5,171 nucleotides of DNA, taken from IMG/VR virus record IMGVR_UViG_3300045988_050557, one strand, 5' to 3'. Source of the DNA: a virus. Made by a program: the position numbers and the translations under genes. Below the pieces are notes generated by a model. It had not been told where the DNA came from. It worked only from the letters and a program-made list of their open reading frames with translations, and ran no database searches. This document shows, piece by piece, positions 1 to 5,081 of this stretch (position 1 is its first letter; each line of letters starts with the position of its first letter).

Positions 1-99
1 CTTTTTTTTAGAAAGGAGAAAAATTATGGCAGATCCTTTAAAGACGGCTAAACAGTATGCTGCTTATAATAACTCATTGTATCAGTCTAATACTCGACA
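1..99. repeat. Terminal redundancy copy 1, identical to 5073..5171; defines a circular 5072-nt genome
   Basis: Read directly: bases 1..99 match 5073..5171 base for base at an offset of 5072. The repeat runs through a T-tract, an SD box and the first 74 nt of the VP2 ORF. That is what a circular contig overlap looks like, not a biological terminal repeat. Confidence 0.95.
9..23 (+). promoter_or_regulatory. Ribosome-binding box TAGAAAGGAGAAAAA upstream of VP2
   Basis: AAAGGAG core lies 5-7 nt upstream of the ATG at 26. The same 15-mer occurs at 3359..3373 upstream of VP1. Confidence 0.85.
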
Positions 100-844
100 A
101 GCTCAGGCGTTCAACGCCGCCGAGGCGGCGAAGAACCGCGATTGGCAGGAGCGTATGTCCAATTCTGCCCATCAGCGCGAAGTGGCAGATTTGAAAAAGG
201 CAGGCCTCAACCCCGTCCTGTCTGCAGGCGGTCAAGGTGCCGCGACAGGTTCCGGCGCGTCTGCGTCTAGTGAAGCCGCTAATGTGGACACTTCAATGCC
301 TCAAGCTGTTATTGATATGGCTGAAGCGCAGTTATCTAGTGCTACCGCGTTACAACAGACTGCAATGACCACTCAGTCTAATATGGCGCAAGCTGTTCTT
401 AAGTCTAATACTGATAAGTATGTTGCTGGTTTACAATACAAGCTTCAAAAATACAAGCATGATAATCCTTCTGCCGATACTGTCGGCGGTCAGTTTTCTC
501 GTTTTCCTGATTTCCTTAAAATTGCTACTAAGTCCACTTTGGATTTTGTTGACTGGGTCGGTAAAGGACTTGAGAAAGCAGGATTTGATACAACTGGTTC
601 TAAGAAGAAGAAAGCCGTTACAGGCTCTTCTGCTCGTGGTGTTAAAGGTTATAAAAATATTGATGAACTTATTGCTGATATTCCCGTTTATGATGAAAAA
701 GGTAAGCTTATTTCTGGCGGTAAACAGAGAAAGAATGAAGCTCGCTTAAATCTTGGCTCTAGGTCATCAAATTCATCACTTGGTAATAAATATCGCTTTG
801 ATACAATGGCTAGGTATCGTAGTAGTAAAAAACGTAAAAAATAA
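26..844 (+). CDS. VP2: DNA pilot / minor capsid protein VP2 (functional analogue of phiX174 H), 272 aa
   Basis: ATG preceded by a strong SD. The block NRDWQERMSNSAHQREVADLKKAGLNPVLS (nt 134..223) matches the conserved N-terminal signature I recall from Microviridae VP2 pilot proteins. It is followed by a Gly/Ala/Ser linker, a Gln/Ala-rich probable coiled-coil and a Lys/Arg-rich tail. Its position directly after VP1 on the circle is typical. No search was run. Confidence 0.85.
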   Translation: MADPLKTAKQYAAYNNSLYQSNTRQAQAFNAAEAAKNRDWQERMSNSAHQREVADLKKAGLNPVLSAGGQGAATGSGASASSEAANVDTSMPQAVIDMAEAQLSSATALQQTAMTTQSNMAQAVLKSNTDKYVAGLQYKLQKYKHDNPSADTVGGQFSRFPDFLKIATKSTLDFVDWVGKGLEKAGFDTTGSKKKKAVTGSSARGVKGYKNIDELIADIPVYDEKGKLISGGKQRKNEARLNLGSRSSNSSLGNKYRFDTMARYRSSKKRKK

Positions 845-1003: not shown

Positions 1004-1093
1004 TAGGTGACACCTAACTAACAGTTAGTGCTCACCGCGGTGAGACCGCGCCGTAAGGCTTACTTGTGTTTTAATGAAAGGACTGATATAATT

Positions 1094-2104
1094 ATGACAT
1101 GTTATCATCCGCTAAAGGCTTTCGCTACAGGAGAAAGGACTAAAAATGGAAAAATTAGTTACATTGTTACTGGCTATGATGCACAGGCTATCATCATTGA
1201 TGGTAAAGGTCGTCGTACTGTGGTTGATTATAATCCTGAGTCTCGTGGTGATAAAGTTCTTCGTGATCCCATAGAGATACCATGTGGTAAATGTTTCGGT
1301 TGCAGATTGAAACGTGCCAGAGATTGGTCTGTTCGTATGATGCTTGAGTCAGAGTATCATGATGAAAACTGGTTTGTGACTCTTACATATAATAATGATC
1401 ACTTACCCATGAATGAGTATGTTGATGATGATGGTGTAATCCAGTTAAAATCTACGTTGTGTAAACGTGATTTACAGTTGTTTTGGAAACGTTTGAGAAA
1501 AAAGCAAGACATTAGGTATTATGCTTGTGGCGAATATGGAACAAGGACTGCGCGTCCTCATTACCATGCTGTTATCTTTGGACTCCATCTTGATCCAGAT
1601 CGGCTTGTCGAGTATCGTTCTCAGCCGTTTCAGCTTTGGACGTGTCCAGAGCTTGAAGAAATTTGGAAATGTGGCTATGTAGTAGTTGGTAAAGTTACCC
1701 AAGAGTCTTGTGAATATACTGCTAGGTACTGCATGAAAAAACTTAACGGCTCTGCCGCTGAAATTTATGATCAATTTAATTTTATTCCTGAGTTTTCATC
1801 CATGAGTTTGAAGCCTGCGATTGGTCGTCAATGGTTTGATGACCATGCGTTTGATATCTATCCAAAGGATGAAATTCAACTCCCTAAAGGTCGCTTAGTG
1901 ACACCGCCTAGATATTTTGACCAGTGTATGGAAAAATTGGATGAGGATTTGATGGTATCCGTCAAGGATGAACGAAAGGACATCGCCGAAAAGCTTGAAC
2001 ATGCTAGATTGCTTGAAACTGCTTTATCTAAGAGTGATTATCTTAAAGTTGCCGAAGTGAATATGAAGCAAAAAATGAAGCGTAAAGTTCGCCCTCTTGA
2101 TTAG
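1094..2104 (+). CDS. VP4: Rolling-circle replication initiator VP4 (HUH endonuclease, phiX174 gpA-like), 336 aa
   Basis: The N-terminus MTCYHPLKAF is typical of gokushovirus-type Rep. Cys cluster CGKCFGCR at 1283..1306. Motif WFVTLTY at 1370..1390. HUH-type PHYHAVIF at 1556..1579. Paired tyrosines in EYTARYCMKK at 1712..1741 are spaced by three residues, as for Tyr343/Tyr347 of phiX174 gpA. I prefer the ATG at 1094 (GAAAGGA at 1076-1082) over the GTG at 1028 given in the ORF track, because 1028 lies inside the hairpin cluster. Confidence 0.93.
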   Translation: MTCYHPLKAFATGERTKNGKISYIVTGYDAQAIIIDGKGRRTVVDYNPESRGDKVLRDPIEIPCGKCFGCRLKRARDWSVRMMLESEYHDENWFVTLTYNNDHLPMNEYVDDDGVIQLKSTLCKRDLQLFWKRLRKKQDIRYYACGEYGTRTARPHYHAVIFGLHLDPDRLVEYRSQPFQLWTCPELEEIWKCGYVVVGKVTQESCEYTARYCMKKLNGSAAEIYDQFNFIPEFSSMSLKPAIGRQWFDDHAFDIYPKDEIQLPKGRLVTPPRYFDQCMEKLDEDLMVSVKDERKDIAEKLEHARLLETALSKSDYLKVAEVNMKQKMKRKVRPLD

Positions 2105-2120: not shown

Positions 2121-2141
2121 AATAATTATGCCTTAATTATT
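2121..2141. repeat. A/T-only inverted repeat AATAATTA-tgcct-TAATTATT
   Basis: Perfect 8-bp arms at 2121-2128 and 2134-2141, within the AT-rich spacer downstream of rep. Confidence 0.6.
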
Positions 2142-2166
2142 GATTATAGGAATAGTTTTTGATAAG

Positions 2167-2200
2167 ATAAGAGTAACAAAAATGTTGCTCTTATTTTTTT
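2167..2200 (+). terminator. Rho-independent terminator downstream of VP4
   Basis: Stem 2167-2177 / 2184-2194 is 11 bp including one G.U (ATAAGAGTAAC / GTTGCTCTTAT), with loop AAAAAT. A T-run at 2194-2200 partly overlaps the 3' arm. Confidence 0.7.
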
Positions 2201-2213
2201 GAAAGGAGACGTT

Positions 2214-2462
2214 ATGAATGAAACGAAGAAAAGTTGTGAAGAAGTCGAAAGACAGGAAGTTGTTTCGCCGGACGGCGAACAAAACGAAGAAAATGAACGT
2301 CAGTCCCCCCACGTTTCGCGGTGGAATTCGTTTGTAAATTCTTTTGTAAGTTGGATGCGTGTATACGGCGAACTGATTTCAGAGATTGTTTTGATGTTGT
2401 GCGTTGCCGGAGTTTGTTATTCCATGGTATGTCTTGTCGAAATTATTTCATTGTTTAGCTAA
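2214..2462 (+). CDS. Hypothetical 82-aa protein: acidic N-terminal half plus C-terminal hydrophobic helix (tail-anchored membrane protein)
   Basis: The ATG at 2214 lies 5 nt after GAAAGGAGA (2201-2209). It is a stand-alone, non-overlapping ORF in the viral gene orientation. The first 36 residues hold 10 acidic and 5 basic residues. The hydrophobic core IVLMLCVAGVCYSMVCLV is at nt 2385..2438. The stop TAA (2460-2462) overlaps the SD AAGGAGG of the next gene. I recognise no family. Confidence 0.6.
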   Translation: MNETKKSCEEVERQEVVSPDGEQNEENERQSPHVSRWNSFVNSFVSWMRVYGELISEIVLMLCVAGVCYSMVCLVEIISLFS

Positions 2463-2473
2463 GGAGGTCTATT

Positions 2474-2749
2474 ATGAAAAATCCTATTTTTTCCGTTAAA
2501 GATAATCTGATCGGTTTTAATGCACCGTATATTCGTCAGAATGAGCGTGTTGCTATACGTGAGTTTAGAACTCTTGTTGAGTCTCTTGATGAGAAAGCTG
2601 ATCATTCTGTTTTTGACTTAGGATTGTATTGCATTGGTACATTTGATTTAGAAACTGGCGTAATCGAGTCTCATGATCCACAGGTTGTGTTGCTCGCTAC
2701 TCAGTGTCTTACTTTGTCCCCTCGTGAGGTAGGTGAAATTGATGATTAG
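2474..2749 (+). CDS. Small non-structural protein, VP5-like (ORF5 family of gokushoviruses, proposed phiX174 C analogue), 91 aa
   Basis: SD AAGGAGG (2461-2467) lies 6 nt before the ATG. The pattern F-x-V-K-D ... F-N-A-P-Y ... N-x-x-x-A-I-R-x-F followed by D-L-x-L-Y-x-I-G-x-F-D-x-x-T-G resembles the roughly 85-95 aa proteins annotated VP5 or non-structural between Rep and VP3 in gokushovirus genomes. This is from memory only. The coding call is firmer than the name. Confidence 0.55.
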   Translation: MKNPIFSVKDNLIGFNAPYIRQNERVAIREFRTLVESLDEKADHSVFDLGLYCIGTFDLETGVIESHDPQVVLLATQCLTLSPREVGEIDD

Positions 2750-3284
2750 GACTCTTTTTGGTGTTTTGCAGAATATGCCTAAAATGCGTGTTGATGTGGC
2801 TTCTTGTCCCGGTTCGCCTGTTAAGGATAAATTCATTATGGAAGTTACTTCCAAGGGATATCCTTCTCTTCGTAAAACTGGAGAACATAACGTGTATGAT
2901 GAGATTCAGTCTTATCGTGAAGGTTGTGATCTCTCGGCAATTCTTCAGTCATTTGGTAATGAATGTCCTCGTTTCAATCCTCTCGGTTTTGAGGAAGCAG
3001 AAGGTTTTGTAAATGATTTCAGTGATGTGTCTAGTCTCGGCGATCTTGTCAATGACGGTGAGGCTGTTAAACAGTTCTTTAATGAGCTTCCATTGGAGGT
3101 TCGTAACTGTTTTGATAATTCTGTGCATAAGTTCGCTCGCGATTTTACTAGCGAGGGATTCCTCGATAGTCTTAGGAAGGCGTTTAATGTACCGCCTGAT
3201 CCAGTGCCTACCCCAGATCCTCCGTCCTCTGTTGAATCTTCTATTGACGGCGGCGGTGCTGATTCTGATCCTAGCACTGCTTAA
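2742..3284 (+). CDS. VP3: Internal scaffolding protein VP3, 180 aa
   Basis: The block TGEHNVYDEIQSYREGCDLSAILQSF and the later FFNELPLEVRNCFDNS match the conserved core I recall for gokushovirus VP3. The ATG at 2742 lies 5 nt after AGGTGA (2731-2736) and overlaps the upstream stop (ATGATTAG). Alternative starts are GTG 2733, ATG 2775/2784 and ATG 2838. The C-terminus is Pro/Asp/Ser-rich. Confidence 0.8.
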   Translation: MIRTLFGVLQNMPKMRVDVASCPGSPVKDKFIMEVTSKGYPSLRKTGEHNVYDEIQSYREGCDLSAILQSFGNECPRFNPLGFEEAEGFVNDFSDVSSLGDLVNDGEAVKQFFNELPLEVRNCFDNSVHKFARDFTSEGFLDSLRKAFNVPPDPVPTPDPPSSVESSIDGGGADSDPSTA

Positions 3285-3332
3285 TATTATATTTATTGTT
3301 TTGGTGTTTTCCATGTTTTTATGTTTTGGTTA

Positions 3333-3350
3333 AGGGGGCGTAAGCCCCCT
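3333..3350 (+). promoter_or_regulatory. GC-rich 7-bp stem-loop with GTAA (GNRA-type) tetraloop between VP3 and VP1
   Basis: AGGGGGC-gtaa-GCCCCCT, read directly. No T-tract follows (CTTCCGTATA), so it is more likely an RNA 3'-end stabiliser or processing signal, or an ssDNA structure, than a classical terminator. Confidence 0.6.
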
Positions 3351-3373: not shown

Positions 3374-5053
3374 ATGTTAGATAATAACTCAAAGTTCAGT
3401 TATGTTCCTGGTACTCGCGCAAGTCGTTCTATTTTTGACTTGAGTAATAGTGTAAAAACTTCTTTTGACGCCGCTCAGCTTGTGCCGTTTTATTATGAAG
3501 AGGTACTCCCAGGAGATACCTTTAATGTGGAAACTAATCTTATCGCTCGTATGCAGACGTTGGTTGCGCCTGTAATGGATGATTTATATTTGGATTTCTT
3601 CTATTTCTTCGTGCCGAATAGAATTGTTTGGGATCATTGGAAGGAATTTATGGGAGAGAATACAAAGTCGGCATGGTATCCGGAAACGGAATACAATGTG
3701 CCGCAGATATCGGTTGCTCCGTCTAAATCTGTAGCTGCTAAATCTGTAGCTGACTATTTCGGAATCCCTCCGATTACAGTTCCGCAAGGTGAAAAGAACT
3801 CTTTCACTTTTTCAGCATTACCTTTCCGCGCCTACGCGGAAATCTGGAACGAATGGTTTAGAGATGAAAATCTTCAAGATCCCGTTCTTGTGGATCATGG
3901 TGATTCCACGCATGTTTATGATGCAAATTCCGCCGTTGATGGTGGCTCTTTGTTATATGCAAACAAGTACCATGATTATTTCACGAGTGCGCTTCCTTCG
4001 CCGCAGAAGGGCGCAGATGTGACAATTCCTATTGGTACTATTGCGCCTGTATATCCTACTAATGCGTCCCAGCTTGGTAATGTTGAGAAGACATATCCTG
4101 TTTCTGTTCTTGAGTGGCGTAACTCTAATGATGCCGCCCTTCCGGCTCGTGGTGGTTTAGGTATTTTAGGATCTGGCGCTACTGATCCGTCCGGTTTGGC
4201 TGGTGTTACGTTTCTTGATCAGGAAGATAATCCTGGTATTTCCGGTAGTCCATATCCATCTAATCTGATCGCGGATATTGGTTCAATTCCTTCTACATCT
4301 ATCAATCAGCTTCGCCTTGCCTTTGCGACTCAAGCTCTCTTGGAGAAAGATGCTCGTGGTGGTACGCGTTATAGAGAAATTATTAAGTCTCACTTTGCGA
4401 CAAATTCTCCAGATGCTCGCCAGCAGGTTCCAGAGCTTTTGTCATATAATCGTGTCCCGATCCAGATCAATCAGGTGGTTCAGAATTCGTCTAGTACAGA
4501 CAACTCCCCGCAGGGAAATACTGCGGCCTATTCTCTCACTGCTGATAGTGACGGCTCTTTTTTAAAGTCGTTCACGGAACATGGCATGGTGATTGGTGTT
4601 ATGTGCGCACGCTATAAGCACACATACCAGCAGGGTTTAGATAAGCGTTTTACTCGCAAAACGCGTTTTGATTATTACTGGCCTCTCCTTGCTAATCTTG
4701 GCGAACAGCCTATTTTAAACCGCGAAATTTACGCGCAGGGAACTGAAAAAGACGGCGAAGTTTTCGGATACCAAGAGGCTTGGAGTGAATATCGGTATAA
4801 ACCAGATATTTGCACATCTGAAATGAGATCAACCTATCCGCAGAGTCTCGATGTTTGGCACTTCGGTGACAATTATAAGTCTTTGCCTACACTCTCATCC
4901 GGATGGATACAGGAGGACTTGAACAATATTAACCGCGCTCTTGCCGTTTCTAGTTCTGTCAGCAATCAGTTCTTTGCTGATATCTACATTAAGAACAAAG
5001 CAACTAGAGTAATGCCAGTTTATTCTATCCCTGGCATGCCTCGTACATTGTAG
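3374..5053 (+). CDS. VP1: Major capsid protein VP1 (phiX174 F-like jelly-roll), 559 aa
   Basis: This is the longest ORF and has a strong SD. The N-terminal pattern RSIFDLSNSVKTSFDAAQLVPFYYEEVLPGDTF, the mid-protein INQLRLAFATQALLEKDARGGTRY and the C-terminal region are hallmark Microviridae capsid motifs. The size fits gokushovirus-type VP1. Confidence 0.95.
   Translation: MLDNNSKFSYVPGTRASRSIFDLSNSVKTSFDAAQLVPFYYEEVLPGDTFNVETNLIARMQTLVAPVMDDLYLDFFYFFVPNRIVWDHWKEFMGENTKSAWYPETEYNVPQISVAPSKSVAAKSVADYFGIPPITVPQGEKNSFTFSALPFRAYAEIWNEWFRDENLQDPVLVDHGDSTHVYDANSAVDGGSLLYANKYHDYFTSALPSPQKGADVTIPIGTIAPVYPTNASQLGNVEKTYPVSVLEWRNSNDAALPARGGLGILGSGATDPSGLAGVTFLDQEDNPGISGSPYPSNLIADIGSIPSTSINQLRLAFATQALLEKDARGGTRYREIIKSHFATNSPDARQQVPELLSYNRVPIQINQVVQNSSSTDNSPQGNTAAYSLTADSDGSFLKSFTEHGMVIGVMCARYKHTYQQGLDKRFTRKTRFDYYWPLLANLGEQPILNREIYAQGTEKDGEVFGYQEAWSEYRYKPDICTSEMRSTYPQSLDVWHFGDNYKSLPTLSSGWIQEDLNNINRALAVSSSVSNQFFADIYIKNKATRVMPVYSIPGMPRTL
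3723..3752 (+). repeat. Perfect 15-nt tandem duplication (2 x CTAAATCTGTAGCTG) inside VP1
   Basis: 3723-3737 equals 3738-3752 exactly. It is in frame and encodes SKSVA-AKSVA (VP1 residues 117-126). Confidence 0.9.
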
Positions 5054-5054
5054 T

Positions 5055-5081
5055 AAGAGGGCTTTGTGCCCTCTTTTTTTT
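5055..5081 (+). terminator. Strong rho-independent terminator after VP1, spanning the circular junction
   Basis: Stem AAGAGGGC / GCCCTCTT (5055-5062 / 5068-5075) with loop TTTGT. A run of eight T (5074-5081) partly overlaps the 3' arm. Positions 1-9 of the window are the same T-tract. Confidence 0.8.

Follow-up and report, generated by a model that had tools for sequence, protein, structure and literature searches.

The 82-residue open reading frame between the replication gene and VP5 of the virus analysed here (hereafter ORF82) is almost certainly a real, translated gene, judging from the pattern of substitutions among its relatives. Its first half is superimposed on VP8, a small gene for a putative DNA-binding protein, and its second half runs past the VP8 stop codon to encode a predicted C-terminal membrane helix. 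A genuine VP8-overlapping gene with a C-terminal membrane helix, for which lysis is the most likely role, is the combined explanation put forward here, with chances somewhat short of even.

The window, that is the whole stretch of 5171 bases that was analysed, reads as a complete gokushovirus-type microvirus genome (Table 1). Whole-window megablast against phage GenBank records returned no close relatives. As called mechanically, the Rep frame opens with GTG 1028; MTCYHPLKAF, with which the conserved part of Rep begins, starts at ATG 1091, after the stretch 1028..1090, and the Rep genes of relatives are called as 336 aa. Since this conserved N-terminus begins at ATG 1091, the VP2-Rep intergenic region comes to about 246 nt. 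Directly 3′ of the VP1 stop codon, a canonical intrinsic terminator occupies positions 5055..5075 and consists of AAGAGGGCTTTGTGCCCTCTT followed by six T.

Table 1. Features of the window, in positions of the whole stretch
Feature	Position	Strand	Remarks
VP2 pilot protein	26..844		
Rep/VP4	1091..2104		probable start ATG 1091
Phage dif-like attachment site	core 2141..2157 (site 2124..2160)	.	17-nt core TGATTATAGGAATAGTT; upstream of ORF82
Strong stem-loop, then U-run	2161..2200	+	RNA fold -16.2 kcal/mol, z-score -5.4; kept in most relatives
Shine-Dalgarno sequence	2202..2209	+	AAAGGAGA, core AGGAG 2204-2208; precedes both start codons; kept in all relatives
Paired start codons ATGAATG	2214..2220	+	ORF82 start 2214, VP8 start 2218
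ORF82	2214..2462	+	ATG 2214, TAA 2460-2462; 82 aa; disordered N-terminus and predicted C-terminal membrane helix
VP8, putative DNA-binding protein	2218..2337	+	39 aa, basic; +1 frame relative to ORF82; phrog_10695 full-length, E 8e-9
Predicted continuous alpha-helix, residues 32-81	2307..2456	+	AlphaFold2; pLDDT 86-95 for residues 41-80; aromatic-rich membrane-adjacent segment, then membrane segment
12-nt tandem duplication	2326..2349 (2326-2337, 2338-2349)	+	ATTCGTTTGTAA / ATTCTTTTGTAA; contains the VP8 stop codon
Invariant Met48 codon	2355..2357	+	possible internal or re-initiation start, giving a 35-aa membrane peptide
Hydrophobic core I58-V75	2385..2438	+	IVLMLCVAGVCYSMVCLV; E57 and E76 on either side; almost invariant across the family
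VP5 Shine-Dalgarno GGAGG	2463-2467	+	adjoins the ORF82 stop codon
VP5	2474..2749	+	PF20577, E 1.2e-15
VP3 scaffold protein	2733..3284		PF09675
Hydrophobic ORF, 106 codons	3013..3333	+	within the VP3 scaffold gene (3′ half, +1 frame); extends 49 nt beyond the VP3 stop
VP1 capsid protein	3374..5053		PF02305

Two frames behind one ribosome binding site

The second ATG of the locus, that of VP8 at 2218, lies four bases after the ORF82 ATG, and the Shine-Dalgarno core is 5 nt from the first start codon (2214) and 9 nt from the second. The first-pass annotation had described ORF82 as a stand-alone orphan with a strong Shine-Dalgarno sequence and tight coupling to the next gene. The signal and the coupling are both borne out, by AGGAG at 2204-2208, 5 nt from the ATG, and by GGAGG straight after TAA with the VP5 ATG at 2474. 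The other two terms have to be given up: codons 2-41 are overlapped by VP8, behind a common Shine-Dalgarno sequence, and ORF82 has 69 clusters of homologues, all full length and 63-100% identical.

The overlapping frame has the features of VP8, named in gokushoviruses as a putative DNA-binding protein (PMC7062461). It encodes about 40 residues rich in lysine and arginine, adjoins VP5 and ends in ...TANKTKK.N....RGGIRL, and the peptide (MKRRKVVKKSKDRKLFRRTANKTKKMNVSPPTFRGGIRL in the window) is almost invariant in the clade. Its C-terminal 25 residues have tblastn matches in 857 microvirus records, many of which are annotated 'DNA binding protein'. At this locus, automatic annotation calls either ORF82 or VP8 and never both, so that VP8 is probably missing from the annotation of the whole clade. 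In most other gokushoviruses (the VP8-bearing viral contigs L017-L094), the VP8 stop codon overlaps the start of a small gene whose products differ between clades and are not membrane proteins, examples being Cys-rich acidic peptides and a ~67-aa protein with ...LPRSKVTRALLRYGL... in its sequence.

Selection was analysed on 14 distinct DNA relatives collected via ORF82 itself. The VP8 frame has a dN/dS of 0.032 at a dS of 1.15, and the 35-codon tail of ORF82 past the VP8 stop (W47-F81) has one of 0.064 at a dS of 1.06, its variable sites being distributed 11/7/28 over codon positions 1, 2 and 3. Read in the two remaining frames, these bases have values of 1.46 and 1.59. With the 5′ part of VP3 at 0.054 for comparison, purifying selection on the ORF82 tail, a point that the first-pass annotation had left to be checked, is as strong as on core genes. 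In the overlap half, the ORF82 frame has a dN/dS of 2.4, with no sign of a separate constraint on its sequence; the only detectable constraint on the first ~41 codons is that of staying open.

This last constraint is strict. A T at those third positions of VP8 where it would create an ORF82 stop occurs in 0 of 110 cases, against 92 of 213 elsewhere. Counted over 17 genomes of the clade, among which are three of the four relatives found through VP5 (see below), such use of T amounts to 0/250, against 129/~1128 in other VP8 clades. When VP8 is resampled synonymously under the codon usage of its genome, the ORF82 frame stays free of stops in only 0.03-0.3% of trials per genome; when the codons of each VP8 gene are shuffled among themselves, 0.5-9% of trials keep it open. 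In all 17 relatives with sequence there, a start codon of the ORF82 frame (ATG or GTG) precedes that of VP8 (ATG or GTG) by 4 or 7 nt, and the equivalent frame is almost always closed in ~75 other gokushovirus VP8 loci. Because stop codons are so strictly avoided, the overlap half is probably translated. Low dN/dS in VP8 and in the ORF82 tail, combined with stop avoidance in the overlap, characterizes the two genes as a dual-coding (overprinted) pair.

The overlap also bears on the N-terminal domain of ORF82, first described as highly acidic. The acidity is present in the window's protein, with 12 D/E against 6 K/R ahead of the hydrophobic segment, and it is not conserved, the net charge before the helix ranging from -9 to +1 across the family (N-terminal mean -4.5). 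It is mostly a by-product, since codons 2-41 are VP8 read out of frame: Lys and Arg codons of VP8, shifted one base earlier, yield an N-terminus rich in E, K, Q and N. An acidic domain as a selected trait was rejected in view of this range of charge and of a third-position composition of VP8 that resembles that of clades without ORF82.

Inside VP8, many relatives (L002, L004, L006, L007, L011, L098 and L099) carry a homopolymer of eight A that is absent from the window. A 40-aa database protein, P0086, is a chimera, with a first part that follows the ORF82 frame and a remainder that follows VP8, the change falling where relatives have their A-run; it could result from a sequencing indel or from genuine slippage. 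Frameshift fusion at the A-run was rejected, as the run is absent from the window.

Predicted architecture of the ORF82 product

The sole hydrophobic segment of ORF82 covers residues 54-81 of 82 and is without proline. Its best 19-residue Kyte-Doolittle window (residues 60-78) reaches 2.33, where the usual cut-off is 1.6, and its insertion free-energy sum is borderline at ~+0.4 kcal/mol, an approximate value. The flank after the helix, SLFS, is uncharged. AlphaFold2, run on a 40-sequence alignment, leaves residues 1-28 disordered (pLDDT <50) and turns most of the rest into one long helix. Hydropathy and structure prediction, the latter suggested in the first-pass annotation, both uphold the C-terminal hydrophobic helix that it had placed with its core at nt 2385-2438. 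One hydrophobic helix within ~30 residues of the C-terminus, a hydrophilic disordered N-terminus and no N-terminal signal sequence give ORF82 the predicted layout of a tail-anchored protein, and on these models it is very probably a membrane protein.

The divergent members P0084 and P0085, for which homology searches gave no match, retain Y.EL[IL][ST]EI.LL...[AG][GA]...[SA]M.....I[IL]SL. The NSFV-NSFV repeat, which had been singled out as an amphipathic duplicated segment, exists in the window's protein, where the 12-nt tandem duplication adds a second NSFV (four residues) in frame; it is confined to the window's subclade, most relatives having a single copy, and is not a family-wide trait. 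Downstream of it, the Met48 codon lies 17 nt from the VP8 stop in the window and 5 nt in most relatives.

Relatives, prophages and hosts

Four further relatives, found independently through VP5 (64-82% identity), provide a check without ascertainment bias. Three of the four hold the whole of ORF82, including the most divergent one (VP5 64% identical); the contig of the fourth starts inside ORF82, so that the tail alone is visible. The position between Rep and VP5, whose conservation the first-pass annotation had raised as a question, is conserved in the relatives examined. When 1.84 billion representatives (50% clustering) were searched exhaustively by profile, three ORF82-family representatives and a group resembling Dulem virus 193 were recovered, the latter through its VP8-driven N-terminus, and nothing else. 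A scan of species-representative genomes for ORF82 gave no match, and comparisons with Pfam, PHROGs, NCBIfam, PADLOC and PDB sequences gave no meaningful one. Most other gokushoviruses are without ORF82.

A comparable gene is found in Dulem virus 193 (PP511346.1; XCD03350.1, 'hypothetical protein'; L012 701..967), as an ORF of 88 codons with 14 homologue clusters. Like ORF82, it starts 4 nt before the VP8 ATG with the same frame relation, its overlap half is variable and its C-terminal hydrophobic segment almost invariant, and a tryptophan-rich segment adjoins the membrane segment, as in the architecture of ORF82. Unlike ORF82, it has the membrane segment GFAIGLGVCSLLLVFLLLLF, for which there is no convincing alignment, and a longer, charged C-terminal tail. 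The profile-profile probability between the two families is 98%, a value driven by the overlap half that VP8 imposes on both. Either an independent origin or extreme divergence of one architecture could account for the Dulem virus 193 gene.

An attachment site can be placed just upstream of ORF82, because the 17-mer that flanks an integrated prophage in L007 (7928-7944 and 12947-12963, within sites 7905-7944 and 12930-12963) is present at 2141-2157 of the window. The host copy of the site is a palindromic dif-like site. This arrangement matches the XerCD/dif integration of enterobacterial gokushoviruses (PMC7062461). Prophage relatives are present on a 572-kb scaffold, with host genes on both sides, and in assembly GCA_048234615.1. 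In a second scan of the species-representative genomes, a flanking gene was used for host identification: the enzyme it encodes is 95% identical to its homologue in an uncultured Clostridia genome, against 68-83% for the other matches, which are mostly from Anaerovoracaceae, Eubacterium and other Clostridia. The hosts are likely Clostridia, and the ORF82 clade is temperate, with dif-integrated prophages in Clostridia contigs related to Anaerovoracaceae. Microviral prophages in Gram-positive bacteria have rarely been reported (PMC9239249). Reports of gokushovirus prophages in such hosts are likewise few.

Between the attachment site and the Shine-Dalgarno sequence of ORF82 and VP8, immediately upstream of the latter, stands the stem-loop of positions 2161-2200, which could act as a terminator, an insulator or an mRNA 5′ structure.

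Candidate roles and known systems

In the mechanism proposed here, a single Shine-Dalgarno sequence in front of two start codons 4 nt apart (ATGAATG) would split ribosomes between VP8 and ORF82. The C-terminal helix of ORF82 would cross the membrane once, right at the end of the protein, in a tail-anchored layout, with the disordered N-terminus presumably in the cytoplasm. This helix would be the functional part of the protein, and it would probably act within the host membrane through sequence-specific helix-helix contact, for which the ELISEI boundary motif with its invariant E53 and E57 and the small-xxx-small motif G66xxxS70 are candidate features. Single-gene lysis could then proceed by inhibition of a membrane-embedded cell-wall precursor enzyme or by direct membrane damage.

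Host-cell lysis is the leading guess for the role of ORF82, a conjecture whose chances we put at somewhat less than even. It ranks first because no lysis family is recognizable in the 5.2-kb genome, because the ribosome binding site is common with VP8, and because small phages have repeatedly put lysis genes in overlapping frames, phiX174 E and MS2 L being precedents. On the first of these points the initial reading was right, as none of the genome's products matched a lysis-related or membrane-protein family. Two further observations count in favour of lysis: a second clade, that of Dulem virus 193, has a VP8-overlapping gene with a C-terminal membrane segment, and the constraint on the helix (0.064) is comparable to that on the 5′ part of VP3 (0.054) and on VP8 (0.032). 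Against lysis count the narrowness of the family and the fact that the many gokushoviruses without ORF82 must lyse their hosts too, as do the temperate nature of the clade, the competing hydrophobic ORF at 3013..3333 and the borderline insertion value of the helix. In addition, the likely hosts, Clostridia, are thick-walled, and we know of no single-gene lysis protein for thick-walled hosts.

A bolder form of the proposal is that ORF82 is the missing lysis effector of a Clostridia-infecting gokushovirus clade, a new dual-start, overprinted, tail-anchored single-gene lysis protein whose almost invariant helix would stop cell-wall synthesis at one of its membrane steps, a solution that would have arisen at least twice, here and in the clade of Dulem virus 193. 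This form is speculative and, as a whole, rather unlikely. Among microviruses, phiX174 is the only one with a lysis mechanism worked out, and its protein E has no homologue in gokushoviruses (PMC3394797).

With similarly limited chances, ORF82 could be a non-essential accessory membrane protein, either a superinfection-exclusion factor of the prophage or a modulator of burst size like K of phiX174. Superinfection exclusion is plausible because the clade is temperate; its dif-like-site prophages lie in Clostridia contigs with ORF82 as the first gene past the left junction, the restriction of ORF82 to one clade fits an accessory better than a core function, and exclusion factors are typically small single-pass membrane proteins. 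The expression signals argue otherwise, in that a Shine-Dalgarno sequence common with VP8 is expected to be used in the productive cycle, while the strong hairpin and U-run between the junction and this sequence make host read-through into ORF82 unlikely. The presence of ORF82 in every relative examined (as a tail only in one contig), under a constraint like that of core genes, also speaks for a role beyond the accessory.

Lysis could also be the work of another gene. The first-pass annotation had called ORF82 the most plausible membrane effector of the genome. It is not the only candidate: the ORF at 3013..3333 may, on sequence signatures of dual coding, be a second overprinted membrane-protein gene, with a position in VP3 like that of E within D. 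All 13 relatives, down to 68% nucleotide identity, have this frame open from an ATG; dS of VP3 falls from 1.17 to 0.38 where this ORF overlaps it; over the last ~45 VP3 codons, pS exceeds pN in the +1 frame and pN exceeds pS in the VP3 frame; and the product, with two or three hydrophobic segments, reaches a Kyte-Doolittle value of 3.35. Its openness counts for little, since 55% T at VP3 third positions gives 8-9% openness expected from composition. Moreover, the VP3 tail is of low complexity and possibly just unconstrained, the ORF has no clear Shine-Dalgarno sequence of its own in the 35 nt before it, and the non-overlapping stretch is too short for a clean dN/dS. That this ORF encodes the lysis protein, with ORF82 assisting or regulating it or taking no part in lysis, is improbable. 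Two other hydrophobic +1-frame ORFs were considered alongside it. The one at 420..749, inside VP2, is interrupted in the majority of the relatives that aligned and is ascribed to base composition, third codon positions being rich in T. The one at 1146..1274, inside Rep, has no stops in 7 aligned relatives, but it is so short that this says nothing for or against it.

Less probable still is a product other than full-length ORF82, either a 35-aa peptide re-initiated at Met48 after VP8 or a slippage-made fusion of VP8 to the membrane segment. The invariance of Met48 and its distance from the VP8 stop (5 nt in most relatives, 17 nt in the window) fit re-initiation, as does an N-terminal half which, at a dN/dS of 2.4 in the ORF82 frame, shows no constraint of its own; slippage could draw on the A8 run in VP8 of many relatives and on the P0086 chimera, joined at the position of that run. 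Neither version explains why stops are avoided throughout the overlap and why an upstream start is conserved, unless the frame is read from 2214, and the A-run is absent from the window. Finally, many short ORFs called in unexplored genomes are not genes, and database annotation of this one never goes beyond 'hypothetical protein', but a chance open frame over a conserved DNA or RNA element is hardly credible and is ruled out by protein-level purifying selection on the tail: hardly any residue of the protein varies at a dS of ~1, substitutions fall mostly at third codon positions, dN/dS exceeds 1 in the other frames of the same bases, and, with 69 full-length homologue clusters and a tail dN/dS of 0.064, ORF82 is far beyond chance. 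A conserved nucleic-acid element was likewise rejected on its own account, synonymous sites being near saturation.

As a lysis candidate, ORF82 has the merit of being concrete and genetically testable in gokushoviruses, the most abundant microviruses of guts and oceans. A single base change, G2247T, would create TAA at ORF82 codon 12 and leave Ser10 of VP8 unchanged (TCG to TCT). Should ORF82 turn out to lyse Clostridia, the target on which it acts would be of interest for antibacterial work. Independently of its role, the gene offers a clean natural case of gene birth by overprinting, in which the N-terminus would be a passenger of the older gene and only the extension past the older gene's stop codon would carry function, and in which two proteins would be made from one ribosome binding site through starts 4 nt apart. 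No paper describing a VP8-overlapping membrane protein was found in the literature.

Among known lysis proteins, ORF82 is not a recognizable holin, with no holin match in Pfam, PHROGs or NCBIfam and no charged C-terminal tail (SLFS). The E protein of phiX174, an inhibitor of MraY that depends on host SlyD, has several features in common with it: E is a small single-pass membrane protein of the Microviridae, encoded by an overlapping gene, and its function resides in a membrane helix of specific sequence, as proposed for ORF82. The helix of E is N-terminal, with an essential proline and a dispensable C-terminal part behind it, whereas that of ORF82 is C-terminal and proline-free, and E lies wholly within the scaffold gene D, whereas ORF82 overlaps VP8 by its N-terminal half and uses the ribosome binding site of VP8. 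No match to the E family was found in Pfam-A (hmmscan, E up to 1) or in PHROGs. Lack of homology and a membrane helix at the other terminus set ORF82 outside the E family. The K protein of phiX174, a small membrane protein that the phage can do without and whose gene spans the A/C junction, resembles ORF82 as a small hydrophobic microvirus accessory protein from an overlapping frame. It differs in being hydrophobic at the N-terminus and in having no sequence relationship with ORF82, which is far more conserved in its clade.

The first-pass annotation had reasoned that a C-terminal membrane helix would make any mechanism new. This was too strong, as L of the MS2 type also has its hydrophobic domain in the second half of the protein and is encoded in an overlapping frame. 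In the ssRNA leviviruses, L has ~75 aa; its C-terminal half contains the functional hydrophobic domain, and its charged N-terminus is largely dispensable; ORF82 is likewise short, with a C-terminal hydrophobic domain and a frame that overlaps VP8. The two proteins have no sequence similarity, the N-terminus is basic in L and mostly acidic in ORF82 (mean net charge -4.5), the Leu-Ser dipeptide of L-like proteins is absent from the conserved tail YGELISEIVLMCCVAGVCYSMVCLVEIISLFS, and ORF82 comes from a DNA phage with a likely Clostridia host. ORF82 is not L-like in the strict sense, because its N-terminus is acidic and the LS motif is absent. By analogy, it would nevertheless be most like MS2 L in its layout, and like phiX174 E and K in its genome logic.
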